A stretch of 64,000 nt of DNA from Azohydromonas sp. (GCF_035325925.1 NZ_DAOKZA010000004.1:51745-115744); one strand, 5' to 3'; counted from the stretch's first letter, positions 1-55,844 are shown. Numbers and translations: made by a program. The notes: generated from the letters alone by a model not told the origin.

Positions 1-1838
<1,838 letters not shown>

Positions 1839-3928: not shown

Positions 3929-4023
3929 GCGCTTCCCCCTGGGTCGTTGCACATCGCCCGCGCCGACCCTCGTCGGTGGCGTGCGTGCGGCGCGAGCATG
4001 AGCGACGAGCACCTACGGATCGC

Positions 4024-5019
4024 CTACCGATGCGCGTCGCGGCCGCGGCGGCGCGACAGCACCAGCCCCGCCAGCCCCGCACCCAGCAGCGCCAGCGTGC
4101 CCGGCAGCGGCACCGGCGTGCCGCCGCCGCGGCCCAGGAACTCGATCATCACGAAGCCGTGGCTGCTCTCGCCGAGCAGCCTGAACATGCTGCTGCCCGG
4201 GATGAAACCACCGAAGTCCTCGTTGACGAAGGAGCCGCCCCCGCCGCCGCCACCGCCCCCGGTGTCGCTGCCACCCCCGCCCCCGCCGCTGTAGCCGCCG
4301 CCGCCACCGCCGGCAAAGAAGACCGCCCCACCGCCTGCGCCGAATCCACCGTCCTGAAATCCATCGCCCCCAGCGGCGCCGAGGATCGCCGCCTCGCCGC
4401 CCCTGGCCGCACCTGCGGGCGTCCCGCCACCGCTGGTGAAGAATCCGCCGCCACCGCCGGCGCCAGAACCAGGGCCCGACGAGCTGAAGCCGGCCACGCC
4501 ACCCGTTCCGTTCGTGCCGCCCGCGCCACCGACCCCGCCGAAGGTCGCCACGCCAGCCGTGCCGTTCGGCCCGAGCGACGCGTTGCGGCCCGAGATGTCA
4601 CCGACCTGCGAGAAGATGCCCCCACCCCCGCCGCCGCCGACGACCAGGGGCATCGGCAGGCCGAGGAAGACGTTCGGGTCGGCGGGCAGGAACACGAAAC
4701 TCCCGCCGCCGCCACCGGCGGCGCCGGTCGTGGGCGGCGGCCGCATGCCGACGATGATCTGGAGCTGCTGCGTTGCGTTGAACGTGAAGATGCCCTCCGC
4801 CCAGGCGCCCAGGCCGCTCGGCCCGCCGCTCTGGACGGTGCCTCCGGCCGCACCGGCCGCGACGATGCGGTAGTCGCCGGGCTGCGTGACGTCGAACGTC
4901 TGCAGCGCGCCGGGGAAGGTGACGTTGAACAGCACCGGGGCGGCACGGGCCGCTCCGGTGGTCACGAGCAGCAGGCCGGCAGCCAGCGAGGCGGCCGCAT
5001 TGCGCAGGTACTTGAACAT
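4024..5019 (-). CDS. Glycine-rich secreted protein with a PEP-CTERM-type sorting tail
   Basis: ATG at 5019 is preceded by AAGGAG. The signal peptide is MFKYLRNAAASLAAGLLLVTTGAARA. Long GGxGG tracts follow. The C-terminus VPLPGTLALLGAGLAGLVLSRRRGR has the layout of PEP-like motif, transmembrane segment and Arg cluster. Confidence 0.8.
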   Translation of the reverse strand: MFKYLRNAAASLAAGLLLVTTGAARAAPVLFNVTFPGALQTFDVTQPGDYRIVAAGAAGGTVQSGGPSGLGAWAEGIFTFNATQQLQIIVGMRPPPTTGAAGGGGGSFVFLPADPNVFLGLPMPLVVGGGGGGGIFSQVGDISGRNASLGPNGTAGVATFGGVGGAGGTNGTGGVAGFSSSGPGSGAGGGGGFFTSGGGTPAGAARGGEAAILGAAGGDGFQDGGFGAGGGAVFFAGGGGGGYSGGGGGGSDTGGGGGGGGGSFVNEDFGGFIPGSSMFRLLGESSHGFVMIEFLGRGGGTPVPLPGTLALLGAGLAGLVLSRRRGRDAHR

Positions 5020-5846: not shown

Positions 5847-6485
5847 TCAGTGGCTGGCGGCGTGCCGAGCGCGTCGGAGGCGCGCCGCTGCGACAAGCAC
5901 CAAGGCCGGCGCGAGCAGCGCGAGCGTGCCCGGCTCGGGCACCGACGGTGGCGGTGCCGTCGGGACCGTGAAGCCGGGATCCTGGCCTTGCCGACCGTCG
6001 ATCGTCTCGAACAGGATCCACGCCAGCACGCCGTCGCCGGTCACGCCGTCGAACAGGCCGGGGTAGAAGCCGGCGACGTCGTCGACGAGGCCTTGATCGT
6101 TGAACACGAACCCGGCGAGGATGAACGACAGCGTGTCGAGGTCGCCCGCGGCGAACTGCGCGCCGAAGATGCCGGAGCTGCCATCACCGGGATCGACGAC
6201 CTGAACCACGTTCGGGTCGAACGCCAGGTCGAAGGTCCATTCCTGCAGCCCGCTGGCGCCCGAGACCTCGACCGGCAGCAGGAACTGGCCGTCCTGCAGT
6301 GTCAGCAGCAGGGGGTCCGGCACGGCCGTGGTCGGTGTGCCCGGTGCGACGACGGTGGCGTGCGCCGCGCCCGCGACGATCGCCCCCGAGACGACCCAGC
6401 CCAGGACGCGATGCCGCCACACGCGGGCGACCGAACCCTTCACCCACTCGCACCCCATCGCGCCACTCCCTCGCCAGTGCTTCAC
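5847..6485 (-). CDS. PEP-CTERM sorting-domain protein
   Basis: The C-terminus SVPEPGTLALLAPALVLVAAARLRRAR is a canonical PEP-CTERM. The body resembles a small beta-sandwich (cohesin-like). The start could instead be the ATG at 6458. Confidence 0.75.
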   Translation of the reverse strand: MKHWRGSGAMGCEWVKGSVARVWRHRVLGWVVSGAIVAGAAHATVVAPGTPTTAVPDPLLLTLQDGQFLLPVEVSGASGLQEWTFDLAFDPNVVQVVDPGDGSSGIFGAQFAAGDLDTLSFILAGFVFNDQGLVDDVAGFYPGLFDGVTGDGVLAWILFETIDGRQGQDPGFTVPTAPPPSVPEPGTLALLAPALVLVAAARLRRARHAASH

Positions 6486-6636
6486 ATGGGACGCCGAGAT
6501 CCGAGGACCTGAGCCGGCGCAACGTGCCGGACCGACCCCGGGGCTTCGACGATGCCCGCCGACTCGGCGGGCGTGGAGGCAATGTCGTCGGCGTCGCCTG
6601 ACGGATCACCTACCGATCGGGGTGCGCCCCGCGATC

Positions 6637-6675: not shown

Positions 6676-9585
6676 CTATCGCGCCGGCACCGGGGTGCCG
6701 TCGCCGGACCACGGCTGCATGCGCCGCGCATGGCGCTCGCGTGGCGTCACGGTCCACGGCGCGGCCTGCAGCGGCAGCAGCGCGAGGTCGGCATGCTGCC
6801 GCGCCCAGGCCGCCAGTGCCGCGTGACCCTGCCACTGCGTGGGCGACGAGTCGGCCAGGCGTCGCAGCGTCCACAGGTCGCAACCGATGCGCGGGGCGTC
6901 CAGGTACACCGCGCCGGCCTCCAGCCGCAGGGCGTTGCCGTGTTCGCCCAGCAGCTTGCGCAGGCGGTGCAGCGCCGCGTCGAACGACTTGCGCGCCGCG
7001 TCGCCGTCGAGCTCGGGCCACAGGTCGTCGACGAGCTGCGCCACCGGCACCGGCGCCGGGCCGTGCACGGCCAGCGCCTGCAGCAGTTCCAGCGGGCGCT
7101 TCTGCACCTTGCCCTCGAAGGTCAGCGGCCGGCCGTCGATCACCACCGCGAAGCCGCCGAGCAGTTGCAGGCGCAGCGGGTGCGGCCAGTCGGGTGCGAT
7201 CGTGTCGGCCGGGGCCGGCAGCGCGCGGCGGCGGATCCAGCGCTGCACGAAGGCCGGCTCGACGCCGTGCGCCAGCGCCGCGGCGGCGGTCTCGCCGAGC
7301 AGGGCGTCGGTGCCGAGCGCCGGGTGGACGATGTCGTGGCGTGCCAGCCGCGCGATCGCCTCGGCCAGCGCGGCGGCCTCGCCGGCGGTGTCGCCGCGCC
7401 GGCGCGCCAGCCAGGCGCGCAGGTCGTGCAGGTGGAAGTCGACCATCGCGCTGCCGGCGCGCGCGGCGACGTCGTGCAGCTCCGCCAGCGTGGCCTCAAC
7501 GTCGGCGTCGTGGTGGCGCCGGCGGTGCGCCAGCGCCTGCGCGATCCAGCCGAAGGCCTCGCACACCGGGCTGCGGATCGCACGCGCGGCGTCGATCGCG
7601 GCGCGCGAGTGCGTCAGCATCGCCGGCACGTCGTCGCGCCACGCGGCCAGCCACGCGGCCTGGAACGCGGCGTGCCAGACCTCGGTGAGCTGCGTCGGCA
7701 GCATCGCCGCACGCGCCTCGGCGAGCAGCGCCTCGGCCGCGCCCAGCTCACCGGCGGCGAGCTGCGCGTCGTTGGCGAGCAGGCGGTGGTAGGTGTCGAG
7801 CCCGTGGATGCCGCACTGCCGTGCCGTGGCCAGCAGGCGTTGCAGCACCGCACCCGCGTCGGCCAGTCGTGCCTGCGCCCAGCAGGCGTCGAGTTCGACC
7901 AGCCCCCAGACGAGGCGGCCGTAGTCGCTGGGGGTCTGCTGCGCCACCGACGGCGCCAGCAGGTCGTGCATCGCGCCGAGCTGCTCGAACAGCCCGCTCC
8001 ACAGCAGGTTGATGCCCAGCACCGAGGCCACGCGCGCGCGCAGCTGCAGCCCGATCGGTGCGTGCAGCGCGTCGAGCGCGCGTGCGCGCCAGCGCGGCAG
8101 TTCGGGGTGTGCCGGCTCGCCGACCAGCAGCGCGTAGACCACCGTCATCGCCACCTGCGCCTTGTCCTCGGCGCTGGCGAGGTCGTCGAAGCGCGGTGCG
8201 ACCTCCTTCAGCTCGTCGAGCCAGCGGGTGATCGGGTAGTCGGGCGCGAAGTCGACGAACGACAGGTACGCCAGGTGCGCCAGCGTGCGCAGCCGCGCCG
8301 CGGCGTCGCCGCGCGCCGCGTAGCCGGCCGCGGCGCGCAGCAGGTGCTCGCGCGCGCGCGCCGGCCGGCTCATCACCCACACCAGCCCGGCCCAGTACTC
8401 GAGGTCGGGGTCGCGCTCGCGCCACTCCGCCGGGAACGACGCGAGCCAGCCGCCGAGTGTGCGCAGCCGCGCCTGCGCGACCAGCCGCGGCGCCAGCGCC
8501 AGCAGCACCGGCGCGGCGCGTTCGAAGTCGCCGGCGCCGAGCAGCGCCGGCAGCGCCGACTCGGCGTCGCCGGCGTCGGCCAGCGCGCGCGCCGCGTCGC
8601 GCCGCAGCGCCGCGAGCTCGGCGCCGGGCAGCGTGTCCTCGGCGTGGCGGCGCAGGAAGTCGCGGATCAGCGGGTGCAGCACGTGCCGCGGTGCGCCGCC
8701 GAGCTCGGTGAGCACGAACAGACCGCGCCGCGCGAACCGCTCGAGCATCGCCGTCGTGCCTTCCAGCCGCGGCCAGGCGCGTTCGAGCGCGGCGCCCACG
8801 TAGGGCAACTGCGCGGCCAGCAGCAGCCGCCGTCGCGTCGGCTCGTCGAAGGCCGGCCACACCTCGTGCGCCAGGTAGTCGCGCAGCACGTCGTCGTCGG
8901 CACCGGGAAGCCGCCCGCCCGCCAGCAGCGTCAGCGACACCGCGGCGGGCCAGCCCAGCGTGCGGCGGTGCACCGCCTCGATGTCCTGCGCCGACGCGGC
9001 GTGCCGGCGCTGCGCGAACAGCGCGCCGACCTCGTCGGGGGTCATCGCCAGCGCGTCGCTCTCGACGGTCGACAGCCGTCCTTCGACACGGGCGCGCGCC
9101 AGCGCCGGCGGCGGCGCGGCGCGCGAGGTCACGATCAGCCGCCGCCGCGCCGGTACCGCGGCCACCGCTTCGGCGAGCACCGCCTGCAGCGCGTCGGCCA
9201 CCGCCTCGGCCTCGTCGAGCACCAGCACGCCGTCGGCCGGCAGCGCGGCGAACAAGGCCGGGAAGTAGCGGCGCGCGAATGCGGCCATGTCGGGCAGCTG
9301 CTCGGCCTGCGGCACCGGCAGCCGCAGGCCGGCGGCGGCGCTGAGGTGCGCAAAGAACCCCGCCGCGTCGGCGTCGGCGGCCGACAGGTGCAGCCACACG
9401 CAAGGCAGCCGGCGCGCGTGCACGTACGACGCCGCGAGGCTGCTCTTGCCGTAGCCGGCCGGCGCGGCGAGCCAGACGCAGCCGCCGGCGTCGAGCCGCT
9501 GCAGCAGCCGCTCGCGCGCGACGATGCCCGAGGCGGCCGGTGGGCCGGCGGTGCCCACCGGGTCGGTCGCGGGGGTACTGCGCAT
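6676..9585 (-). CDS. STAND-type ATPase transcriptional regulator: N-terminal P-loop ATPase, helical/TPR-like middle, C-terminal OmpR/SARP-type winged helix
   Basis: Walker A is present (LAAPAGYGKSSLAAS). The C-terminal block LRLQLLGGFAVVIDGRPL...KRPLELLQALAVHG...LWPELDGDAARKSFDAALHRLRKLL matches the SARP/OmpR DNA-binding fold. Confidence 0.8.
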   Translation of the reverse strand: MRSTPATDPVGTAGPPAASGIVARERLLQRLDAGGCVWLAAPAGYGKSSLAASYVHARRLPCVWLHLSAADADAAGFFAHLSAAAGLRLPVPQAEQLPDMAAFARRYFPALFAALPADGVLVLDEAEAVADALQAVLAEAVAAVPARRRLIVTSRAAPPPALARARVEGRLSTVESDALAMTPDEVGALFAQRRHAASAQDIEAVHRRTLGWPAAVSLTLLAGGRLPGADDDVLRDYLAHEVWPAFDEPTRRRLLLAAQLPYVGAALERAWPRLEGTTAMLERFARRGLFVLTELGGAPRHVLHPLIRDFLRRHAEDTLPGAELAALRRDAARALADAGDAESALPALLGAGDFERAAPVLLALAPRLVAQARLRTLGGWLASFPAEWRERDPDLEYWAGLVWVMSRPARAREHLLRAAAGYAARGDAAARLRTLAHLAYLSFVDFAPDYPITRWLDELKEVAPRFDDLASAEDKAQVAMTVVYALLVGEPAHPELPRWRARALDALHAPIGLQLRARVASVLGINLLWSGLFEQLGAMHDLLAPSVAQQTPSDYGRLVWGLVELDACWAQARLADAGAVLQRLLATARQCGIHGLDTYHRLLANDAQLAAGELGAAEALLAEARAAMLPTQLTEVWHAAFQAAWLAAWRDDVPAMLTHSRAAIDAARAIRSPVCEAFGWIAQALAHRRRHHDADVEATLAELHDVAARAGSAMVDFHLHDLRAWLARRRGDTAGEAAALAEAIARLARHDIVHPALGTDALLGETAAAALAHGVEPAFVQRWIRRRALPAPADTIAPDWPHPLRLQLLGGFAVVIDGRPLTFEGKVQKRPLELLQALAVHGPAPVPVAQLVDDLWPELDGDAARKSFDAALHRLRKLLGEHGNALRLEAGAVYLDAPRIGCDLWTLRRLADSSPTQWQGHAALAAWARQHADLALLPLQAAPWTVTPRERHARRMQPWSGDGTPVPAR

Positions 9586-45437: not shown

Positions 45438-45522
45438 AGCGCCGCCGCAGGCGGGGCCGGCCGACGACCGGCAAGGCCGGCGCGTGCCGATCGCGCGTCC
45501 ACCGGGCGGCCCGGTCGCGGCC

Positions 45523-46158
45523 TCACCAGCGCAGCAGCCGCGGCCCGAGGACGCCGCCCAGCAGCGCCACCAGCGCGATGCCCGCCGAGTACCACAAGGC
45601 CACGAAGGCCGGCGAGGTCTCGGTGCACGACAAGGCGTAGCCCAGCGCGCCCACCGCGCCGGCCATCAGGCCGGCCGCGAACCCGGCGGCGCGCGGGCGC
45701 GTCGTCGCCAGCCCACGCACCGCCCACAGCGCCGCCGCCAGCGCCGGCAACGACAGCGCGAACACGCTGGCCGGGCAACGGCTCCACGAGTGACCGAGGA
45801 TCGCCGCTTCGCGCGCCTGCGCCGGGGCCAGCGCGACGATGCCGGCACCGATCGCGAGCATCGCCGCCACCACGGCCGCCGCGACCAGCGCCGGTGCGCG
45901 CACGCGCGCCACCGGCCTGGACAACCGCGCCGTCAGCCAACCGGCCGCGGCGGCGAGCGCGCCGGCGTAGGCGAGCTTCATCCATGGCGCCGGCGTGCGG
46001 TACATCTCCATCGGGATGCCGCCGAGCACGGCCAGCGCCACCAGCGCGCTCGCCGCCAGGCCCAGCGCGGCCGCCGGCGCCAGCCGGCGCGCGGCCGCCG
46101 CGCGCGGTGCCGGCCCGGCGCTGCGCGCCAGCATGTCGATCAGCGTCTCGGTCTTCAT
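45523..46158 (-). CDS. nrsF: NrsF-family (DUF1109) membrane anti-sigma factor
   Basis: The N-terminus is MKTETLIDMLARSAGP, followed by six hydrophobic segments. It lies directly downstream of the ECF sigma gene. Confidence 0.85.
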   Translation of the reverse strand: MKTETLIDMLARSAGPAPRAAAARRLAPAAALGLAASALVALAVLGGIPMEMYRTPAPWMKLAYAGALAAAAGWLTARLSRPVARVRAPALVAAAVVAAMLAIGAGIVALAPAQAREAAILGHSWSRCPASVFALSLPALAAALWAVRGLATTRPRAAGFAAGLMAGAVGALGYALSCTETSPAFVALWYSAGIALVALLGGVLGPRLLRW

Positions 46159-46183
46159 CGTCGTCCCGCCGGGAGTCGGGCGC

Positions 46184-46738
46184 TCAGCGCCGCACCCATG
46201 CCGCCAGCCGCCTGAGCCCGCGGTGCACCTGCACCTTGACCGCCGACTCCGACGCGCCGGTGCGCAGCGCGGCTTCGGCCACCGACAGCCCCTCGATCTT
46301 GGTCAGCACGATCGCCTGCCGCTGCGCCGCCGGCAACGCGTCGAGCAGCTGCTGCAGGTCGCGGCTCGCGCCGCCGTCGTCAGGCGCGGCGGCCAGCAGC
46401 TGCTCGTCGACGTCGTCGAGCGCGTCGTGCAGGTGCTCGCGGCGCCCGCGACGCCGCCACAGGTCGACCAGCTTGTGGCGCGCGATCGCCACCACCCAGG
46501 CGCTGACCGGCAGCGCCGGGTCGTAGGTGCCGCGCTGCAGGTGCAGCGCGAGCAGGGTCTCTTGCACCAGATCCTCCACTTCGTCGGGCACGTCGCGCAG
46601 GCGCCTCTTCAGGTAGCCGCGCAGCCGCGTGGCGATGCGCCGCAGGCTCTCGCGGTAGGCCGCCTCGTCGCCGGCCTGCGCACGCAGCCACAGCGGCTTC
46701 AGGGCCGACTCGAACTCGCTGCCGGCGTCGTCGGACAC
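46184..46738 (-). CDS. sigF: ECF (group IV) RNA polymerase sigma factor, sigmaF-type
   Basis: Region 2 is EDLVQETLLALHLQRGTYD...WVVAIARHKLVDLWRR. Region 4 is LPAAQRQAIVLTKIEGLSVAEAALRTGASESAVKVQVHRGL. A GTG start at 46738 is proposed; see the finding on the conflict with the adjacent promoter motif. Confidence 0.88.
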   Translation of the reverse strand: MSDDAGSEFESALKPLWLRAQAGDEAAYRESLRRIATRLRGYLKRRLRDVPDEVEDLVQETLLALHLQRGTYDPALPVSAWVVAIARHKLVDLWRRRGRREHLHDALDDVDEQLLAAAPDDGGASRDLQQLLDALPAAQRQAIVLTKIEGLSVAEAALRTGASESAVKVQVHRGLRRLAAWVRR

Positions 46739-46764
46739 TTCGTCGTGCGGGGCACTCTGGTTAC
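46739..46764 (-). promoter_or_regulatory. ECF-type promoter motif GTAACC-N16-CGAA upstream of the sigma gene
   Basis: The minus strand reads TGTAACC agagtgccccgcacga CGAA GTG. The same motif and spacing occur at 49605-49630 (-) and 49669-49694 (+). Confidence 0.5.
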
Positions 46765-46935
46765 AGCGGCCGCAGCGGACGCCGGGGTCGGTGCGAACCT
46801 GCACACCCGGCGCCGATTCTGCCGCTGCCGAGCCCGACGTCCGCGCGACGGCGACGCCGCGGTCGCGATGGCGCAAGCGCCGCGAACCCGTCCGCCGCCA
46901 CGGGTGCGGCGCGACCGTCGCCGCAGCCAGCGCGC

Positions 46936-47478
46936 TCAACGGCGGGCGATCAGGTGGTCGATCGCGATCACGCCGGGGCCTCGCGAGATCAGCCACAGCA
47001 GCACCGCCGCCCATACCCCGTGCGTCGCGTAGGCGCCGGGGTAGACGAGGAACTGGATCACCGCCGTCATCACCAGCAGCCCCAGCGCGGCAACGCGCGT
47101 GCCCAGCCCGATCAGCAGCAGCAGCGGCAGCACGTGTTCGCCCACCGCGGCGAGCAGCGCGGCCGACTCGGGCGGCAGCAGCGGCAGGCGGTATTCGTCG
47201 CGGAACAGCGCGACGGCCGACGGCGCGAGGCGCGGCACGCCCCATTCGAAGTGGCCGCCGACGATGTCGATCGCCAGCCCCTCGACCTTGGTCTGGCCCG
47301 AGCTCCAGAACACCGCGGCCACCGAGAAGCGCCCGAGCAGCGCGACCGCCGAATGCGGCAACGCCGACATCCAGCGCAGCGCGCCGTCGCGCATCGCGCG
47401 CAGCGGGCTCGAAATGCCGTGCGCGCCGGGCGCGGGCGCCGCGGTGCGCGACGGGGTGGGCGTCGGGGAGGCGGTCAT
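46936..47478 (-). CDS. bufD: DoxX-family membrane protein (BufD/GigT-like position)
   Basis: GRFSVAAVFWSSGQTKV and HVLPLLLLIGLGTRVAALGLLVMTAVIQFLVYP are present. The ATG overlaps the upstream stop (ATGA). Confidence 0.88.
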   Translation of the reverse strand: MTASPTPTPSRTAAPAPGAHGISSPLRAMRDGALRWMSALPHSAVALLGRFSVAAVFWSSGQTKVEGLAIDIVGGHFEWGVPRLAPSAVALFRDEYRLPLLPPESAALLAAVGEHVLPLLLLIGLGTRVAALGLLVMTAVIQFLVYPGAYATHGVWAAVLLWLISRGPGVIAIDHLIARR

Positions 47479-48275
47479 GGCGGGCCGTCGGTGGGTGAGC
47501 GAGCGGGCGACAGGCCGACCACGGCGCCGTGCCGCAGCAGCGTCGCCAGCACGCGGGTCGTCGACGCGTCGGGGTGGGTGCGGGCGGCGGCGCCGAGCCC
47601 GTGCCCGGCGGCGAGCGCGTGCACCAGGTCGGCGTCCGCGGCGGCCAGCGGCACGACGAGCACCTCGTCGTGCGGGCGAAGCACCAGCGCGGCTTGCGGC
47701 GTGCCGAGGTCGATGCCGGCCAGCGCCGCGTCGCGCGCGGTCGCGTCGAGCTGGTGCGCGCGCCACAGCGAGACCGCCGGATGCGCACTGCGCAGCCACC
47801 GCAGCGAAGGGTGCAGCGCGAGCGCGGTGGCGTCCAGCGCGTCGGGGTCGTGCAGCCGCAGGGCCAGCGCCTGCGGGTCGATCGCGTCGGCGTCGGCCGC
47901 GTGCTGCGCCTGCCAGCGCATCCACTCCAGGCGCGCGACGTCGGGCAGGTACGGCAAGGCCGCCGCCGGCGCGAAGCCGGCGAGCCAGCCGGCGAACGCG
48001 GCGCCGTAGTCGCCCATCACCGGCGACCGCGGCGGATGCGCGTCGACGTGCTCGCGCGCCATCGCGTCGAAGAACGCGTCGCCGACCAGCGCGACGACCA
48101 CGGGGAAGGTGTCGCCCAGCACGCCGATCAGCGATGCGACGACGTTGTTGCGGTGGACCGCGAAGCGCACCGACACGTCGGAACCGTTCCACGCCACCAG
48201 ACCCGCGGGCACCGGGGCGCACGGGTCGAGCAGCGCCGCGGCGATGGCGTGCTGCGCGGGCGGCGCCGGGCGCAT
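47475..48275 (-). CDS. bufC: DUF2063 protein, partner of the MNIO enzyme (BufC-like)
   Basis: AAALLDPCAPVPAGL...RFAVHRNNVVASLIGVLGDTFPVVVALVGDAFFDAMAREH...PPRSPVMGDYG is the DUF2063 signature. Confidence 0.85.
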   Translation of the reverse strand: MRPAPPAQHAIAAALLDPCAPVPAGLVAWNGSDVSVRFAVHRNNVVASLIGVLGDTFPVVVALVGDAFFDAMAREHVDAHPPRSPVMGDYGAAFAGWLAGFAPAAALPYLPDVARLEWMRWQAQHAADADAIDPQALALRLHDPDALDATALALHPSLRWLRSAHPAVSLWRAHQLDATARDAALAGIDLGTPQAALVLRPHDEVLVVPLAAADADLVHALAAGHGLGAAARTHPDASTTRVLATLLRHGAVVGLSPARSPTDGPP

Positions 48276-48283
48276 GGTCGGCC

Positions 48284-49168
48284 TCAGGCGACGGCGGCGC
48301 GCCGCCGGTCGACGACGGCGTCGCGCTGCAGCTGCGCCGCGCGCGCGGCCTCGGCCTCGAGCCGCGCCAGCGGCGGCACGTCGTGGTCGCGCTCGATCAG
48401 CGTCGGCACCGGCCCCAGCCGCTCGATCGTGCGTGCGTACAGCGCCCACACCGCGGCGCCGACGTCCGAACCGTGGTCGTCGATCAGCAGCCGATCGCCG
48501 GCGGCGTCGCGGTCGACGGCGTGCCCGGCGAGGTGGATCTCGGCGACGGCCGCCGCGGGCAGGGCCTCGATCAGCGTCCAGGGGTCGCCGCCGTGGTTGA
48601 CGGCGCTGACGTAGGCGTTGTTCACGTCGAGCAGCAGCGCGCACCCGGTGCGGCGCACCACCTCGGCGAGCAAGCCGCCCTCGTCCATCGTCGACGCGGC
48701 GAAGCCGAGGTAGGTGCTGGGGTTCTCGAGCAGCATGCGCCGGCACAGCCGCTCCTGCACCCGGTCGACGTGGTCGCACACGCGGCGCAGCGTCGGCAGG
48801 TCGTACGGCAGCGGCAGCAGGTCGTTGAACCAGTGGCCACCGTGGCTCGACCAGGCCAGGTGCTCGCTGAACCAGCGCGGCTCGAGACGATCGAGCAGCG
48901 CGGCCAGGCGGTCCAGGTGCGCCTCGTCGAGCGGGCCCTCGCCGCCGATCGACAGGCCCACGCCGTGGACCGACAGCGGCCAGCGTTCGCGCAAGCGCAG
49001 CAGGTCGCGCCGCCACGGCCCGCCGTCGGCCATGCAGTTCTCGGCGTGCACCTCGAAGAACGGCGCGGCGCGGATGGCCGGCTCGCGGTCGGGCTGCAGC
49101 AGTTCGCGCAGGTGCATCGGCTTCAGGCCGATGCCGCACAGGATCGACGCGGGTTCGTCCATCGGCAC
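48284..49168 (-). CDS. bufB: DUF692 multinuclear non-heme iron oxidative enzyme (MNIO; BufB/MbnB-like)
   Basis: GIGLKPMHLRELL, FFEVHAEN, SVHGVGLSIGG, WFSEHLAW, LLENPSTY, LLLDVNNAYVS, EIHLAGH and LIERD are all present as TIM-barrel metal-ligand blocks. Confidence 0.92.
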   Translation of the reverse strand: MPMDEPASILCGIGLKPMHLRELLQPDREPAIRAAPFFEVHAENCMADGGPWRRDLLRLRERWPLSVHGVGLSIGGEGPLDEAHLDRLAALLDRLEPRWFSEHLAWSSHGGHWFNDLLPLPYDLPTLRRVCDHVDRVQERLCRRMLLENPSTYLGFAASTMDEGGLLAEVVRRTGCALLLDVNNAYVSAVNHGGDPWTLIEALPAAAVAEIHLAGHAVDRDAAGDRLLIDDHGSDVGAAVWALYARTIERLGPVPTLIERDHDVPPLARLEAEAARAAQLQRDAVVDRRRAAVA

Positions 49169-49196
49169 GACGGGCGACGGCGGGCGCGTGGCGTGC

Positions 49197-49508
49197 TCAG
49201 GCCTGCTTCTCCTTGAACGCCTGCAGCTGGCCGAAGCCGGTCGACGAGGTCGTGCTGTCGGTCTTCTCGCAGGTTCCCTTGGGCACCAGCTTCCAGGCGT
49301 TGCCCTGGTGGTCGCGCGTGCTGGTGCCGGCGCACGTGGTGCCGGGCCCCGCGGCGCAGTCGTTCTTGCCCTTCAGGGCCACGCCGTAGCACTTCTCGGT
49401 GTCGGCCGACGGCGCCTGCGCCTGTGCGGACGCCTGCGCCAGCGACAGCGCGGTGCCGATGGCCAGCGCGAGCGCGGCGGTGTGGGCGGCGGTGGGGTGA
49501 GCATGCAT
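49197..49508 (-). CDS. bufA: DUF2282 secreted Cys-containing peptide: bufferin-type RiPP precursor
   Basis: ATG at 49508 is preceded by AAGGAGA. The Sec signal is [30 protein letters not shown]. The core [45 protein letters not shown] carries 4 Cys in the DUF2282 pattern. Confidence 0.88.
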
Positions 49509-49604
49509 GCGGGTCTCTCCTTGCGGTGCGTCGAGGGGTCGTGGTCGCGTCGGTGCGGGCAGGGGGCCCTTCACCGGGGCGCCGGTGGTGGCTCCCACCG
49601 GCGA

Positions 49605-49630
49605 TTCGTCGCCACGCAGGCCCGCGTTAC
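49605..49630 (-). promoter_or_regulatory. ECF-type promoter motif GTAACG-N16-CGAA upstream of bufA
   Basis: The minus strand reads TGTAACG cgggcctgcgtggcga CGAA, about 97 nt upstream of the bufA ATG. Confidence 0.5.
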
Positions 49631-49668
49631 AGTGACTTCGCCATGGGTTTTCCCGGGGCGTCGGCGAT

Positions 49669-49694
49669 GTAACCGGCGCCGCCCCGGCGGCGAA
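49669..49694 (+). promoter_or_regulatory. ECF-type promoter motif GTAACC-N16-CGAA upstream of the radical-SAM gene
   Basis: The plus strand reads TGTAACC ggcgccgccccggcgg CGAA, ending 47 nt upstream of the ATG at 49742. Confidence 0.5.
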
Positions 49695-49741
49695 CCTCAT
49701 CGGCACGCCTGCCACCCACGCCCTGCGACCGCCACCCCGAC

Positions 49742-50743
49742 ATGCACGACACGCTGCCGCTGCTCGCCGACACCGACTTCCCGCCGCTGCGCCGGCGTCG
49801 CCTCGACACGCTACAGGTCAACCTGGGCTACCGCTGCAACCAGCGCTGCCTGCACTGTCACGTCGACGCCGGGCCGAACCGCACCGAGGCGATGGACGCC
49901 GCGACGGTCGACCTGCTGCTCGAGGTGCTGCGCGCCCGCCGCGTGGCCACGCTGGACCTCACCGGCGGTGCGCCCGAGCTGAACCCGCAGTTCCGCCGCC
50001 TGACGGCGTCGGCGCGCGCGCTCGGCGTGCGCGTGATCGACCGCTGCAACCTGACCATCCTGTCCGAGCCCGGGCAGGAGGACCTGGCGGGGTTCCTCGC
50101 GGCGCACGGCGTGGAGGTCACCGCGTCGCTGCCTTGCTATTCACCGGCCAACGTCGACCGCCAGCGCGGCGACGGCGTGTTCGGGCGCAGCATCGCGGGG
50201 CTGCGCCGGCTCAACGCGCTCGGCTACGGCGACGGCGGTGCGCTCGTGCTGAACCTCGTCTACAACCCGCAGGGCCCGTCGCTGCCGCCGCCGCAGGCGG
50301 CGCTCGAGGCCGACTACAAGCGCGAGCTGATGGCGCACTTCGGCATCCGCTTCGACCGCCTGTTCGCGCTGGCCAACATGCCGATCCGGCGCTTCGGCAG
50401 CACGCTCGTCAGCAAGGGCACGTTCGCCGCTTACATGGCGCTGCTGCGCAGCGCGCATCGCGACGACAACCTCGACACCGTGATGTGCCGCGAACTGGTC
50501 AGCGTTGACTGGCGCGGTGACCTGTACGACTGCGACTTCAACCAGATGCTCGGGCTGCCCGCGCGCCTGGCCGGGCGGCCGCGCGCGCACCTGCGCGACC
50601 TGCTGCGCCACGACCCGGCCGGCGAGGCGATCCGCGTGGCCGACCACTGCTACGGCTGCACCGCCGGCCAGGGCAGCAGCTGCGGCGGGGCGCGGGGGGG
50701 GGGGGTGCAACCGGCCGAGGCGCCGCCCGCCGGGGCGGCGTGA
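49742..50743 (+). CDS. arsS: Radical SAM/Cys-rich-domain protein (ArsS-like family)
   Basis: The radical-SAM motif CNQRCLHCH is present, with a C-terminal Cys-rich tail [15 protein letters not shown]. The family is named for arsenosugar biosynthesis in cyanobacteria. No arsM is present here, so the function is probably different. Confidence 0.9.
50694..50705. repeat. Homopolymeric G12 tract inside the last 17 codons of the radical-SAM gene
   Basis: Read directly: cgc + 12 g + tgcaacc, encoding ..RGGGV.. It ends 35 nt before the start of the overlapping downstream gene. Confidence 0.9.
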
Positions 50744-52908
50744 TGGCCGCGCGGTCGCGCCGCGCGCTGTGGCTCGGGGCCGGCGCCGCCGCGATCGCCG
50801 CCGCCTGGGCCTACCTGCACTTCGACCTCGGCGCGCTGCTCACGTTCGAGCAGCTCAAGGCCAGCCGCGACGCGCTGGTCGGCGCGTACCAGGCGCGCCC
50901 GGCCGCGACGCTGGCGGCGTTCTTCGCGGTCTACGTGGCGGCCACGGCGCTGTCGATCCCCGGCGCGCTGGTGCTGACGCTGGCCGCCGGCGCGATGTTC
51001 GGGCTGGGTGTGGGGCTGGTGGTGGTCAGCTTCGCGTCCAGCCTGGGCGCGCTGCTGGCGTTCCTGGTCGCGCGCCACCTGCTGCGCGACGCGGTGCAGT
51101 CGCGCTTCGGCGCGTCGCTGGCACCGATCAACGACGGCGTGCGACGCGACGGTGCGCTGTACCTGCTGACGCTGCGCCTGGTGCCGGTGTTCCCGTTCTG
51201 GCTGATCAACCTGCTGATGGGGCTGACGCCGATCACCGCGCTGCGCTACTACGTGGTCAGCCAGCTCGGCATGCTGCCGGGCACCGCGGTGTACGTGAAC
51301 GCCGGCACGCAGCTGGCGTCGATCGCGTCGGCGCGCGACATCCTGTCGCCGGCGCTGCTGGGCAGCTTCGTGCTGCTGGGGCTGTTCCCCTTCGTCGCCC
51401 GGGCGGGCGTCGGCTGGCTGCAGCAACGCAAGGTCTATGCGAAGTGGCCGCGGCCGAAGCGCTTCGAGCGCGACCTGGTGGTCATCGGCGCCGGCGCCGG
51501 CGGGCTGGTGTCGGCCTACATCGGCGCGGCCGTGAGGGCCGAGGTGACCCTGGTCGAGGGCCACCGCATGGGAGGCGACTGCCTGAACACCGGCTGCGTG
51601 CCGAGCAAGGCGCTGATCCGCTCGGCCAGGCTGGCGCGGCAGCTGCGCGACGCCGCCTCGCTGGGCCTGAAGGACGTGCAAGGCGAGGTCGACTTCGCCG
51701 CGGTGATGCAGCGCGTGCAGCGCGTGATCGGCGACATCGCGCCGCACGACTCGGTCGAGCGCTACGCCGGCCTGGGCGTCGAGGTGCTGCAGGGCCACGC
51801 GCGCATCACCAGCCCGTGGACGGTGCAGGTGCGGCTGCACGACGGCGGCACGCGCACGCTGACCACGCGCAGCATCGTCGTCGCCGCCGGCGCCGCCCCC
51901 TTCGTGCCGCCGATCCCGGGGCTGCGCGAGGCCGGCTGCCTGACCAGCGAGACGCTGTGGGGCCTGCGCGTGCTGCCGAGGCGACTGCTGGTGCTCGGCG
52001 GCGGGCCGATCGGCTGCGAGCTGGCGCAGGCCTTCGCGCGGCTCGGATCGCAGGTCACGCAGGTCGAGATGGCGCCGCGCCTGCTCGGGCGCGAGGACCC
52101 CGAGGTGTCGCAACGGGTGGCCGCCGCGCTGCGCGACGACGGCGTGGCGGTGCTCACCGGCCACGAGGCGGTGCGCGTCGAGGTGGTCGACGGCGAGAAG
52201 CGGCTCGTCGCGCGGCACGAAGGCCGGCAGGTCGTGGTCGCGTACGACGAACTGCTGTGCGCGGTCGGACGCAGCCCGCGCGTGAGCGGCTACGGGCTCG
52301 AGGCGCTGGGCATCGCGCCGGCGCCGGGGAAGGCGATCGAGACCGACGCCTGGCTGCGCACGCGCGTCCCGAACGTCTACGCGGTGGGCGACGTCGCGGG
52401 CCCGTTGCAGTTCACGCACGTCGCCGCACACCAGGCGTGGTACGCCGCGGTCAACGCGCTGTTCGGGCGCTTCGGGCGTTTCAGGGTCGACTACCGCGTG
52501 ATCCCGTGGACGACGTTCACCGACCCGGAGGTCGCGCGCGTGGGCCTGTCGGAGGCCGAGGCGCGCGAGCAGGGCATCGCCGTCGAGGTGACGCGCTACG
52601 GCATCGACGACCTCGACCGTGCGATCGTCGACGGCACCGCGCACGGCTTCGTCAAGGTGCTGACGGTGCCGGGCAAGGACCGCATCCTCGGCGTGACCAT
52701 CGTCGGCGAACACGCCGGCGACCTGCTGGCCGAGTACGTGCTGGCGATGAAACACGGCCTGGGGCTGAACAAGATCCTGGGCACGATCCACACCTACCCG
52801 ACGCTGGCCGAGGCGAACAAGCACGCCGCCGGCGCGTGGAAGCGCGCGCACGCGCCGCAGAAGCTGCTGGACTGGGTGGCGCGTTATCACGCGTGGGAGC
52901 GGGGCTGA
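50740..52908 (+). CDS. Fusion: DedA/TVP38-type membrane domain plus class I pyridine-nucleotide-disulfide oxidoreductase (mercuric-reductase/lipoamide-dehydrogenase-like)
   Basis: The N-terminal ~230 aa are polytopic (LRLVPVFPFWLINLLMG). They are followed by DLVVIGAGAGG, the redox-active GGDCLNTGCVPSK, and the C-terminal HTYPTLAE dyad. The start overlaps the arsS-like stop (GTGA, or ATG at 50743). Confidence 0.9.
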   Translation: MMAARSRRALWLGAGAAAIAAAWAYLHFDLGALLTFEQLKASRDALVGAYQARPAATLAAFFAVYVAATALSIPGALVLTLAAGAMFGLGVGLVVVSFASSLGALLAFLVARHLLRDAVQSRFGASLAPINDGVRRDGALYLLTLRLVPVFPFWLINLLMGLTPITALRYYVVSQLGMLPGTAVYVNAGTQLASIASARDILSPALLGSFVLLGLFPFVARAGVGWLQQRKVYAKWPRPKRFERDLVVIGAGAGGLVSAYIGAAVRAEVTLVEGHRMGGDCLNTGCVPSKALIRSARLARQLRDAASLGLKDVQGEVDFAAVMQRVQRVIGDIAPHDSVERYAGLGVEVLQGHARITSPWTVQVRLHDGGTRTLTTRSIVVAAGAAPFVPPIPGLREAGCLTSETLWGLRVLPRRLLVLGGGPIGCELAQAFARLGSQVTQVEMAPRLLGREDPEVSQRVAAALRDDGVAVLTGHEAVRVEVVDGEKRLVARHEGRQVVVAYDELLCAVGRSPRVSGYGLEALGIAPAPGKAIETDAWLRTRVPNVYAVGDVAGPLQFTHVAAHQAWYAAVNALFGRFGRFRVDYRVIPWTTFTDPEVARVGLSEAEAREQGIAVEVTRYGIDDLDRAIVDGTAHGFVKVLTVPGKDRILGVTIVGEHAGDLLAEYVLAMKHGLGLNKILGTIHTYPTLAEANKHAAGAWKRAHAPQKLLDWVARYHAWERG

Positions 52909-52935
52909 ACGCGATCGCGCGCAGCGCCGCCCCGC

Positions 52936-53661
52936 TCAGCCGCGCCACACGCCCAGCTCGACGAGCTGTCGCGTCGCCGCGTCGGCCCAGCCGCGGTTGG
53001 CCGCGGGGCTGGCCGGGCTGGGGTGCAGCATGCGGCCGATGCGCAGCCCGCGCACGTCGGCCAGCGCCGCTGCGGCGCGCGCGTGCGCCCACTGGCCGAC
53101 GCCGACCACCCACTCGGGCGCCAGCGCGTCGACCAGCGCACGCAGGTGCGCGTCGCACGCGGCGAGCAGCGGGCGCTGCTCGGCCGCGGGCAGCTTGTCG
53201 GGCGTGAGGTTGCGCGCGCCGACGAAGAACACCAGCGGGCAGTAGTTGGCAACGAAGTGCCCGGCGAAGAAGGCCTGCGGCGTGCCGAAGCGCGCGCGGA
53301 ACAGCCCCCACAGCCGCTGGCCGCTGACTTCGGCGCGCGGGCAGTCGAAGCCCATCACCGGGCGCTTCGGGTGGGGCCTGCGCGGCTGGCCGACGGGGCC
53401 CGCGAGCGCGAGCCAGTCACGCACCGCGGCCACCTCGCCGAACGGCACGCCGGTCTGCGCCATGCCGAACGGGCCCGGGTTCATGCCGACGAAGAGCACG
53501 CGGCGGCGGCCGTCGCCGTAGCGCTCGAGGTAGCGGCGGTGCACGTCCCACGCGTAGTCGAGCGGGTTGAGCACGTGCGTCACCGGCGCCGCGAAGCGCA
53601 GGCGGTCGACCGCGTGCGACAGCCGGTGCGCCGCGTCGACCAGTGCGGCGGCCGTCGTCAC
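52936..53661 (-). CDS. Family-3 (SMUG1-type) uracil-DNA glycosylase
   Basis: GMNPGPFGMAQTGVPFG and LHPSPASP are the two SMUG-type catalytic motifs. The start is GTG. Confidence 0.85.
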   Translation of the reverse strand: MTTAAALVDAAHRLSHAVDRLRFAAPVTHVLNPLDYAWDVHRRYLERYGDGRRRVLFVGMNPGPFGMAQTGVPFGEVAAVRDWLALAGPVGQPRRPHPKRPVMGFDCPRAEVSGQRLWGLFRARFGTPQAFFAGHFVANYCPLVFFVGARNLTPDKLPAAEQRPLLAACDAHLRALVDALAPEWVVGVGQWAHARAAAALADVRGLRIGRMLHPSPASPAANRGWADAATRQLVELGVWRG

Positions 53662-53864
53662 TGGTCGCTGCGCGCCGCGACGACGGCGAACGCACCGGCG
53701 CCGCAGCCCGGGCGCACCGGTTCGATGTCGCGCACCGCGGCCACGGTGCCGGTCAGCGTCTGCGCGGGCATCGCCGGCAGTCCGCTGGCGCAGGCCGCGC
53801 CGTGGCGGCCGAACCAGGCCTCGCAGCGGTCGGTGTGGCGTTCGAACGGTTCGGCCAGCGGCAT
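53658..53864 (-). CDS. Doubtful short ORF, possibly the remnant of a SAM-methyltransferase N-terminus
   Basis: MPLAEPFERHTDRCEAWFGRHGAACASGL... faintly resembles the Y/FDAWFERH start of small class I methyltransferases, but the glycine-rich motif is degenerate. It overlaps both neighbouring genes. Confidence 0.25.
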   Translation of the reverse strand: MPLAEPFERHTDRCEAWFGRHGAACASGLPAMPAQTLTGTVAAVRDIEPVRPGCGAGAFAVVAARSDQ

Positions 53865-53925
53865 CGCGGCGCCTCGACGCACGGCGCGCGCCGTGCCGCG
53901 CCTCGACGCATGGTACGCCGGCGCG

Positions 53926-55056
53926 TCAGCGGTACGCACGCAGGTAGTGCCACTCGAACAGCCGCTTGGCCCAGTGCAGCAGGCGCGACGGCGGCAGCAG
54001 CACGTTGCGGCGTTCGCTGCGGTAGACCAGCGTGCCGCGGTCGAGCGCGTCGACGATGCACACCAGCTCGACCTTGAAGGTGGCGCGGCAGTCGTCGCCC
54101 GCCAGGTCGCCGAGCAGGTTCGCGGCCGCGGCCGCGGCCTGCAGGTCGGCCATGTGCGCCTGCTTGGGCATCCAGTCGGGCCCGGGGAAGCTGCCCGAGT
54201 CGCCGACCACGTACACGCGCGGCCAGCCGGGCACGCGGCAGTGTGCGTCGGCCTGCACCAGCCCGCCCGGCGAGCGCGGCAGGTCGGTGGCGTCGAACCA
54301 GGCGTTGCCGGTCATGCCCGGCATGAACAGGATCAGGTCGGCGGCGAAGCCGCCGCCTGCGGTGGTCACGCGGTCGGCGTCGAGGCGTTCGAGCTTGTGC
54401 CCCAGGTGGGTGCGGATGCCGCGCCGCGCCATCTCGGCCAGCAGGTGCGCCACCGCCTTCGGGCCCAGGCGGTTGCCCGGCTCGGCGGCGGGGCTGAAGA
54501 ACACCAGCTCGAAGCGCTCGCGCCGGCCTTCGCGTCGCAGCTGGCGGTCGATGCCGAACAGGAACTCGAACATCGGCCCGCCGCGCACCGCGCTGGGCTC
54601 GTTCGGGTTGCCGGCGAAGCCCACCGCGATCGTGCCGCCGTTCATCGCCGCGAGCCGGTCGCGGATGCGCTCGGCGCTGGCCACGCCTTCGCACGGCGTG
54701 ATCGCGTGTTCGATGCCCGGCAGCTTCCTCAGGAAGCGTCCGCCGGTGGCGATGACGAGCGCGTCGTTGGCGACGTCGCCGGCGCTGGTGTGCACGACGC
54801 GGCCGCGGTCGGCCAGCCCCGTGGCCTCGGCGGCGACGAAGCGCACGCGATGGCGGCGCAGGAAGCGCTGCAGCGGCACCACCAGCTGCTCGCGCCGGCG
54901 CAGCCCGCTGGGGATCCAGATGATGCCCGGCAGGTAGTGCAGCTCGGCGCGCGGCGCCACCAGCGTGATCTCGGCGTCGCGGTCGCGCCGGCGCAGCGCG
55001 CGCACCGTCGACAGCGCCGCGAAGCCCGCGCCGAGCACGGTGATGCGCGCGGTCAT
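53926..55056 (-). CDS. NAD(P)/FAD-dependent oxidoreductase (NDH-2 / sulfide:quinone-reductase-like fold)
   Basis: The N-terminal dinucleotide fold is ITVLGAGFAALSTVRAL, and a second one is present (GGTIAVGFAG). The stretch YVVGDSG is also present. Confidence 0.88.
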   Translation of the reverse strand: MTARITVLGAGFAALSTVRALRRRDRDAEITLVAPRAELHYLPGIIWIPSGLRRREQLVVPLQRFLRRHRVRFVAAEATGLADRGRVVHTSAGDVANDALVIATGGRFLRKLPGIEHAITPCEGVASAERIRDRLAAMNGGTIAVGFAGNPNEPSAVRGGPMFEFLFGIDRQLRREGRRERFELVFFSPAAEPGNRLGPKAVAHLLAEMARRGIRTHLGHKLERLDADRVTTAGGGFAADLILFMPGMTGNAWFDATDLPRSPGGLVQADAHCRVPGWPRVYVVGDSGSFPGPDWMPKQAHMADLQAAAAAANLLGDLAGDDCRATFKVELVCIVDALDRGTLVYRSERRNVLLPPSRLLHWAKRLFEWHYLRAYR

Positions 55057-55105
55057 GGCCGCTGCGCGTCGCGCACCGGGTGAGGCTGCGATGGCGGGCG
55101 GTTCG

Positions 55106-55729
55106 TCACGCGGCCGCCGCGTCGTCGTCGCCGATCAGCAGCCGGCTGGCGCCCACATAGCGGTGCGGCGGGACCTCGAGGTTGGTCGGCGCGGGCTTGT
55201 TCTTGTACACGCGCCCGGCGCCGTCGAAGGTCGATCCGTGGCACGGGCAGAAGAAGCCGCCGGGCCAGTCGGCACCGACGCCGGGGTTGGCGCTGCCGGC
55301 GGGCACCGCGGTGGGCGAGCAGCCCAGGTGCGTGCAGATGCCCACCGCGACGAACACGTCGGGCTCGATCGAGCGCGTGGCGTTGCGCGCGTACTCGGGC
55401 TGCTGCGGCCGCGCCGACCGCGGGTCGGCGAGTTCGGGGTCGGCCCGCTCGACGGCGGCGATCATCTCGGGCGTGCGGCGCACGATCCACACCGGCTTGC
55501 CGCGCCACTCGACGGTCTTCATGCCGCCGGGCGGGATGTCGGCGATGTCGACCTCGACCGACGCGCCCAGCGCCTTGGCGCGCTCGCTGGGCGTGAACGT
55601 CGCGACGAAGGGCACCGCGGTGCCGACGGCGGCGACGCCGCCGGCCGCGCCGGTGGCGAGCAGCCACGTGCGCCGGTCGGGGTCCATCGGGCCCGGCGGG
55701 GCCGGGTTCGGCAGGGCATGGCTGCTCAT
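55106..55729 (-). CDS. petA: Rieske iron-sulfur subunit of ubiquinol-cytochrome c reductase type (PetA-like), without petB/petC
   Basis: A Tat-like signal is present (DRRTWLLATGAAGGVAAVG), together with VEWRGKPVWIVRRTPE and the Rieske boxes CTHLGC and CPCHGS. Confidence 0.9.
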   Translation of the reverse strand: MSSHALPNPAPPGPMDPDRRTWLLATGAAGGVAAVGTAVPFVATFTPSERAKALGASVEVDIADIPPGGMKTVEWRGKPVWIVRRTPEMIAAVERADPELADPRSARPQQPEYARNATRSIEPDVFVAVGICTHLGCSPTAVPAGSANPGVGADWPGGFFCPCHGSTFDGAGRVYKNKPAPTNLEVPPHRYVGASRLLIGDDDAAAA

Positions 55730-55844
55730 CGTCGCTCCTCGGGGCACGTTGCGTGCGTCGTTCGTCTTTATACCACGTGGGGTATAGAAGACCTCACCCC
55801 CTGCCGCGATGCAGGTTGATCGGCGCAGCGCCACAATCGCCCGC

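Follow-up and report, generated by a model that had tools for sequence, protein, structure and literature searches.

Which regulator governs an ArsS-type gene pair that diverges from a bufferin operon? This question is raised by a 64,000-nucleotide stretch of DNA from Azohydromonas sp. (GCF_035325925.1, NZ_DAOKZA010000004.1:51745-115744; hereafter the window, with positions counted from its first letter). Here, a gene for a radical S-adenosylmethionine (rSAM) protein of the ArsS family is followed by a gene fusing a DedA/VTT membrane domain to a flavoprotein disulfide reductase (DedA-FAD). Close by lie a bufferin operon (bufABCD) and the genes for a sigma factor with extracytoplasmic function (ECF), of the SigF type (ECF16), and its anti-sigma NrsF. 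An earlier note on this DNA had proposed that a third copy of the SigF promoter motif faces the rSAM/DedA-FAD pair, which would extend the regulon. Our analysis led us to a similar view: this third copy is probably a SigF-type promoter for the rSAM/DedA-FAD operon, which would then be a new target of the SigF regulon.

The motif TGTAAC(C/G)-N16-CGAA has exactly three exact matches in the window (Table 1), with the identical spacing that the earlier note had described. Dinucleotide-preserving shuffles (n = 100) produced no match to TGTAACS-N16-CGAA, and the looser pattern GTAAC-N17-CGAA returned the same three sites against 0.05 expected, so the note was right that three copies are very unlikely to have arisen by chance. 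Allowing one mismatch added no site in the 64 kb, while allowing two added two sites, which is the chance level (3.7 expected). The rSAM-side site carries the -35 GTAACC and the -10 CGAA, 16 nt apart, of the published Caulobacter sigmaF promoter; this consensus, GTAACC-N16-CGAA, which the earlier note had given correctly, was mapped by rapid amplification of cDNA ends (5'-RACE) and primer extension (PMC3511200). Base for base the site is of the SigF type: the sixth base of its -35 box is C and its -10 box reads CGAA, as in the autoregulatory site of sigF 3 kb away. On the same strand, 47 nt separate its end from the ATG at 49742, the distance previously given, and it stands back to back with the bufABCD motif, with 36 bp separating the two -35 boxes. 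The same back-to-back arrangement of buf and rSAM motifs is seen in L002, one of the related loci described below. A sigma-70-like promoter scan of 49400-53200, including the intergenic region, found none, and an Rfam scan of the rSAM leader for a riboswitch matched no element. A structured rSAM leader was also considered and rejected (folding stability z-score +0.8, no Rfam match).

The genes downstream of this site were identified with Pfam and NCBIfam models. The rSAM protein scores 443 bits against TIGR04167 (ArsS; cut-off 300) and 183 bits against DUF3641, has a Cys-rich C-terminal tail and carries the cluster motif CNQRCLHC, which fits CxxxCxxC. In the fusion protein, the VTT domain (PF09335) covers residues 77-190 with 69.5 bits (threshold 33.9), and the redox motif is CLNTGC (CxxxxC). 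The rSAM stop codon (TGA, 50741-50743) overlaps the start of the fusion gene, be it GTG 50740 or ATG 50743, and the next gene is convergent; we therefore consider the two genes an operon, in agreement with the overlapping pair of rSAM/Cys-rich and DedA-disulfide-reductase genes that the earlier note had described. On the other strand, NrsF matches its full Pfam model and has two Cys residues, C128 and C178. For sigF, the GTG at 46738-46736 is the sole in-frame start candidate and abuts the CGAA box, and in relatives the start also falls within ~3-7 nt of the motif; this position suggests that the sigF mRNA is leaderless or near-leaderless.

We compared the window with 80 loci around rSAM homologues in species-representative genomes and with a further 12 that surround the database homologues of highest similarity (78-97% identity). 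A metagenome scan seeded with NrsF gave eight loci that were mostly too short for neighbours; L086 and L087 were informative, and L086 was added. The total was 93 distinct related loci, and the association of motif and sigF was tested on 90 of them. Ten distinct loci have sigF-nrsF beside the rSAM cassette: the window (counted together with L089, its 97% twin), L002, L004, L006, L086, L093, L094, L095, L096 and L098. Nine of these ten have GTAAC-N17-CG(A/T)N 30-80 nt before the first cassette gene, which is either rSAM or DUF3047 followed by rSAM, and all nine relatives in this group also have a motif copy directly 5' of sigF. At the orthologous position, the motif is present in L002, L004, L006, L086, L093, L095, L096 and L098 and, with no adjacent sigF, in L001, L092 (Piscinibacter sakaiensis) and L097. 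Two further loci, L099 and L100, have the gene pair and no clear motif.

Overall, the F-type motif was counted in 8/9 loci with an adjacent sigF and in 3/81 of the remainder (Fisher P=1.9e-8, a value that overstates independence because the loci are phylogenetically related), with L098 as a further case. Within the 124 nt before rSAM in the 80 genome loci, there were three sites with no more than one mismatch (L001, L004 and L006) against 0.095 expected from the local background. The motif has been kept at its position while the spacer sequences diverged completely among the loci, which points to selection on both boxes and on their spacing. In the divergent pairs, the distance from -35 to -35 is 22, 33, 36, 80 or 86 bp depending on the locus and the internal spacer is always 16 nt, which argues for two independent promoters rather than one palindromic operator. 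The reading of the third motif as a promoter is thus supported by its recurrence before orthologous cassettes, where distance and orientation are kept and where it tracks an adjacent sigF-nrsF. On a neighbour-joining tree of the rSAM proteins, the F-type loci fall into what is essentially a single Burkholderiales subclade.

The earlier note had proposed that the pair is co-regulated with the bufferin operon. The shared SigF-type promoter in the window agrees with this, but the link does not extend to bufferin itself: buf genes lie within ~8 kb of rSAM in only 4/93 loci (L002, L010, L016 and the window, counted with its twin L089), and a recurrent co-occurrence of the rSAM/DedA-FAD pair with bufferin operons was not found. 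Among the ten loci with an adjacent sigF-nrsF, buf genes are present in the window and L002 only and missing from the other eight; the evolutionary link of the cassette is therefore to sigF-nrsF and not to the bufferin operon. In line with the note's remark that neither gene belongs to the described bufferin system, the two published surveys of bufferin gene clusters name only BufA, MNIO, DUF2063, DoxX, sigma and NrsF as recurrent genes. A buf operon also adjoins the cassette in Thiobacillus (L010:5543-7847) and Competibacter (L016:13707-16153), with no sigF-nrsF nearby. These two unrelated lineages hint at a weak but recurrent association of buf and cassette that is independent of SigF.

A natural deletion in a close relative separates the gene pair from its presumed regulator. 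L090, whose rSAM is 90% identical, can be aligned with the window to either side of a clean 3.9-kb gap that corresponds to window 45459-49403 (L090:6662-7000). The missing stretch holds nrsF, sigF, bufD, bufC, bufB and the 3' two-thirds of bufA. A 105-nt bufA remnant is left, which shows that the loss took place in L090. There, the rSAM -35 box is mutated to TGTGAC and the bufA-side -10 box is lost. The state of L090 is also compatible with the decay of an orphaned promoter. Separately, L090 also has no counterpart of window 53653-55821.

A second ECF-like motif of the same geometry precedes many other cassettes. The pattern (T)GTAAG(G/A)-N15/16-CGAC(C/T)A departs from the SigF motif at two bases, the sixth of the -35 box and the last of the -10 box. 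It stands before rSAM, or before whichever gene opens its operon, in 21/80 loci as an exact match and in ~31/80 if one mismatch is allowed. It lies 30-170 nt 5' of rSAM in L003, L007, L023, L026, L028, L033, L040, L042, L045, L047, L054, L058, L062, L078 and L091, the last being Rubrivivax albus, and it is found at the cassettes of many Proteobacteria that have no adjacent sigF. Sites of the combined pattern number 49 in 2.3 Mb, mostly at the starts of cassette genes. In 13/80 loci, an ECF sigma gene of the TIGR02943 family and a gene for a 65-aa zinc-finger anti-sigma (ZAS; HxxxCxxC, NF052368) adjoin the cassette, and rSAM is part of the ECF operon there. The TGTAAG motif also stands before the TIGR02943 gene in L056 and L058, and this observation, together with the co-location, weakly supports the idea that the TIGR02943 sigma reads the TGTAAG motif. 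A statistical link between the motif and an adjacent TIGR02943 gene was sought and failed (2/13 versus 20/77).

Two arrangements within the TIGR02943 loci were also seen. An exact TGTAAG-N16-CGAC is found inside the 3' coding region of several TIGR02943 genes (at codons for ...CKELGIS...), with the anti-sigma gene following ~80 nt further on; this could be a promoter within the gene or a chance result of conserved coding sequence. L032 carries a tandem duplication (L032:6900-7160), in which an rSAM fragment is followed by an exact TGTAACC-N16-CGAA and then, after 6 nt, by a second copy of a TIGR02943-type ECF gene. This arrangement may mean that the two ECF systems cross-talk or act in a cascade.

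Table 1. Coordinates of the genes and promoter-like motifs discussed in the text; positions with a locus handle refer to that locus, all others to the window.
Feature	Position	Strand	Remarks
SigF-type (ECF16) motif TGTAACC-N16-CGAA	49668-49694	+	exact match; faces the rSAM operon
SigF-type motif TGTAACG-N16-CGAA	49605-49631	-	exact match; for bufABCD
SigF-type autoregulatory motif TGTAACC-N16-CGAA	46739-46765	-	exact match; directly 5' of sigF
ArsS-family radical SAM protein	49742-50743	+	Radical_SAM + DUF3641, TIGR04167
DedA/VTT + class-I pyridine-nucleotide disulfide oxidoreductase fusion	50740-52908	+	Pfam VTT_dom, Pyr_redox_2, Pyr_redox_dim
UDG-family gene	52936-53661		convergent with the rSAM operon; next gene after the fusion
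bufA, DUF2282 bufferin precursor	49197-49508	-	Pfam
bufB, MNIO maturase (MNIO_BufB)	48284-49168	-	NF050167, 351 bits (cut-off 310)
bufC, DUF2063/HvfC-like	47475-48275	-	Pfam
bufD, DoxX family	46936-47478	-	Pfam
ECF sigma, SigF type	46184-46738	-	Sigma70_r2 + r4_2; paired with NrsF
NrsF anti-sigma	45523-46158	-	Pfam NrsF, 196 bits, full model
TGTAAG-type site	L008:7007-7032
TGTAAG-type site	L036:5659-5684
TIGR02943 sigma gene	L034:7106-7895 (sigma followed by anti-sigma)
TIGR02943 sigma gene	L075:6306-7156 (sigma followed by anti-sigma)
TIGR02943 sigma gene, further loci	L010, L017, L020, L025, L032, L056, L058, L062, L074
Intragenic TGTAAG-N16-CGAC	L020:~7665-7690
Intragenic TGTAAG-N16-CGAC	L025:~4017-4042
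Intragenic TGTAAG-N16-CGAC	L032:~6461-6486 and ~7640-7665
Intragenic TGTAAG-N16-CGAC	L034:~7592-7617
Intragenic TGTAAG-N16-CGAC	L074:~6859-6884

These observations allow other explanations of the window site to be weighed. In one of them, the site would indeed be an ECF promoter, but a TIGR02943-family sigma with its small zinc-finger anti-sigma would read it, and the adjacency of SigF would be coincidental. The two motifs differ at just two positions, the TGTAAG type and the TIGR02943/ZAS genes recur at cassettes, and in L032 the exact SigF-type motif stands 5' of an ECF gene of that very family. We nevertheless regard this as unlikely, because the window site is exactly of the SigF type, the choice between GTAAC and GTAAG follows the adjacency of sigF-nrsF in the counts given above, and neither the window nor any F-type locus contains a TIGR02943-type ECF gene. 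We also consider it improbable that the motif is a relic without function, or arose as a by-product when the bufA/sigF promoter region was duplicated, with the operon running on an unrecognised housekeeping promoter. Sigma-70 promoters are poorly recognisable in high-GC genomes, so the empty scan is weak evidence on this point, and both L090, with its intact genes and mutated -35 box, and the motif-poor L099 and L100 would fit such a scenario. What it leaves unexplained is the retention of the motif at the orthologous position across wholly diverged spacers and the excess of sites before rSAM over the background expectation. Finally, the two motifs between bufA and rSAM are inverted copies, as would be expected if together they formed a single palindromic operator bound by a dimeric repressor or activator. 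However, their distance ranges from 22 to 86 bp among loci whereas the N16 within each copy is invariant, a single motif stands 5' of rSAM in L001, L092, L093 and L097 and 5' of sigF in the window, and each copy matches a sigma motif mapped by 5'-RACE. This makes an operator highly improbable, and we rejected it on the variable distance between the motifs.

Several points weigh against SigF control of the operon. The assignment of SigF as the sigma that would use the rSAM site is drawn from sequence, and a second ECF sigma encoded elsewhere could read the site, given that the two motifs differ at two bases only. The relatedness of the loci lowers the force of the association test, and in L094, a locus with an adjacent sigF, the motif is no more than a degenerate version (TGTAGCC-N16-CGAT). 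The rSAM and DedA-FAD genes of L090 are intact in spite of the loss of nrsF, sigF and buf, from which it follows that expression of the operon is not absolutely dependent on a linked sigF. No good Shine-Dalgarno sequence was seen before the ATG at 49742. Moreover, tblastn found no match in the window to an ArsM-like methyltransferase, the glycosyltransferase GT2, DUF2064, DUF3047, TIGR03169 or a purine-nucleoside phosphorylase; for ArsM, this agrees with the absence of arsM that the earlier note had reported.

If the site is indeed a SigF promoter, as we favor, the following model can be proposed. The membrane anti-sigma NrsF would release SigF, and RNA polymerase carrying SigF would start at all three promoters. 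This would co-induce three units: sigF-nrsF, the bufferin operon and the translationally coupled rSAM/DedA-FAD operon. In other bacteria, Cr(VI), cadmium or copper stress and hypochlorite are the signals that release SigF from NrsF, and signals of this kind would presumably induce the window operon. A function of the rSAM/DedA-FAD pair in metal or thiol stress is likewise suggested only by the identity of its proposed regulator.

How does this model relate to the SigF systems already described? The sigmaF-NrsF system of Caulobacter crescentus (ECF16; Kohler et al. 2012, PMC3511200) shares with the window the GTAACC-N16-CGAA promoter and autoregulation, the pairing of the sigma with a six-transmembrane anti-sigma that has two periplasmic Cys residues, and the bufferin target operon DUF2282-DUF692-DUF2063-DoxX. 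The Caulobacter regulon comprises eight genes in three units, namely buf1, buf2 and a YedY-like gene, and expression of the buf1 operon is sigmaF-dependent (PMC3511200). Unlike the window, it includes no radical-SAM or DedA-reductase gene, whereas in the window and in at least nine other Burkholderiales loci an ArsS-type cassette adjoins the system and carries the motif. In Azospira suillum, SigF/NrsF controls YedYZ and MrpX in the defence against hypochlorite (PMC4436054, PMC4623255). This is again a betaproteobacterial SigF/NrsF that drives lineage-specific redox-protective neighbours, although the genes under its control encode a methionine sulfoxide reductase of the periplasm and a peptide rich in Met, not an rSAM/reductase cassette. 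In L085, a more distant sigF-nrsF locus, a divergent exact SigF motif (ending at 853, minus strand) faces a gene for a 238-aa signal-peptide protein with a CSSC motif (81-797, minus strand). The neighbours of SigF appear to vary by lineage, yet are repeatedly thiol or redox proteins.

Among the open-access papers, we found none that links SigF/NrsF, or any ECF sigma, to an ArsS-type cassette, and a 2026 transcription-start atlas of Cupriavidus discusses ECF16 with no rSAM or DedA target. SigF/NrsF is a widespread and thinly characterised metal and oxidant switch, whose known targets are bufferins and periplasmic methionine-sulfoxide repair. If the model is correct, envelope metal sensing would be tied to cytoplasmic metalloid or thiol chemistry, and the promoter would give a first regulatory clue to when the thousands of non-cyanobacterial genes annotated as "arsenosugar biosynthesis" are used.

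The genes around rSAM show what kind of module would be controlled. Neighbour families were counted over the 80 genome loci by tblastn with chosen representatives. The most frequent were GT2 (TIGR04283; 52/80 loci) and DUF2064 (TIGR04282; 44/80), transferases that NCBI names as arsenosugar biosynthesis enzymes, followed by the DedA-FAD fusion (~33/80) and a 355-aa protein that belongs to no family (22/80). DUF3047 (15/80), the TIGR03169 "N-terminal-to-SelD" reductase and an ArsM-like methyltransferase (12/80 each), an SSF-like transporter (11/80) and a purine-nucleoside-phosphorylase-like protein (5/80) were less common. In 11 of 13 further close relatives, DedA-FAD lies directly 3' of rSAM, mostly with overlapping stop and start codons, and the window, L090 and L100 retain only the rSAM and DedA-FAD pair. 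Hence, the pair is the conserved, trimmed core of a widespread and catalogued ArsS-type cassette (TIGR04167/04282/04283, TIGR03169, DUF3047), and not the new functional module that the earlier note had envisaged. The window rSAM resembles this arsenosugar-labelled cassette in its score above the equivalog cut-off, its CxxxCxxC motif and its Cys-rich DUF3641 tail; the window differs in having rSAM and DedA-FAD only, and its 64 kb contain neither ArsM nor a glycosyltransferase or phosphorylase. The arsenosugar pathway as described does not include regulation by an ECF sigma. Most SigF genomes lack the cassette, which for the most part carries the other ECF-like motif.

Genes for an ABC transporter of the PhnD-like, phosphonate-binding kind and for DUF547 are repeatedly part of the cassette in the window's closest clade (downstream in L091, L094, L095, L096 and L098); both are outside NCBI's arsenosugar-labelled families. 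Some relatives have metal-resistance genes beside the cassette: a ChrA chromate transporter gene lies directly 5' of the cassette in Piscinibacter sakaiensis (L092:5477-6823), and genes for MerR, MerC and a MerA-like reductase lie 5' of it in a Ramlibacter metagenome-assembled genome (L096:727-3160).

The distribution of the two motifs suggests how SigF control might have arisen. Because the F-type loci form essentially one subclade while the TGTAAG-type motif is scattered across the whole rSAM tree, the simplest reading is that SigF control of the cassette is derived, the ArsS-type cassette having moved from another ECF-type promoter to SigF in one Burkholderiales subclade. The TIGR02943 ECF/ZAS system adjoins the same cassette and goes with an ECF-like motif of the same geometry, but differs from SigF in its sigma family, in its cytoplasmic anti-sigma and in its absence from the window. 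If, as it appears, one ECF system was exchanged for another by way of near-identical promoters, this would be a compact natural example of regulon rewiring, although the swap across lineages is an interesting extension and less secure than the promoter itself. Taken further, and only tentatively, the proteobacterial ArsS-type cassette might be an ECF-governed, stress-inducible module rather than a constitutive arsenosugar pathway. Its ancestral promoter, TGTAAG-N16/17-CGAC, would have been read by a TIGR02943 sigma with a cytoplasmic, thiol-sensing zinc-finger anti-sigma, and one Burkholderiales subclade would have swapped to SigF-NrsF by a one-base change in the -35 box and a relocation of the genes. 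SigF-NrsF would then fire a periplasmic copper-buffering peptide together with a cytoplasmic and membrane metalloid-handling pair, of which rSAM and the DedA-reductase would be the minimal unit.

Finally, we considered the chemistry of the pair. ArsS adenosylates dimethylarsenite, DMAs(III), an activity known for the cyanobacterial enzyme only (PMC13598754). The characterised family member adds a 5'-deoxyadenosyl group to a thiol-bound trivalent arsenical. The second gene of the window operon encodes a membrane-tethered NAD(P)H/FAD disulfide-type reductase. The closest solved structures of the reductase domain are MerA cores (263 bits), with which it shares the FAD/NAD(P)H fold, the redox-active CxxxxC and the dimerisation domain of class-I disulfide oxidoreductases. 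Its identification as MerA was rejected: the C-terminus (...ARYHAWERG) has no Cys pair, and the TIGR02053 score of 373 bits falls below the cut-off of 454. In further contrast to MerA, the N-terminus is DedA and not an HMA domain, so that there is no NmerA. The His in the C-terminal active-site stretch is kept (IHTYPTLAE). Our guess, which we hold with low confidence, is that the reductase serves the rSAM enzyme, either by reducing and delivering a soft metalloid substrate (As or Se) or by re-reducing its three-Cys tail.

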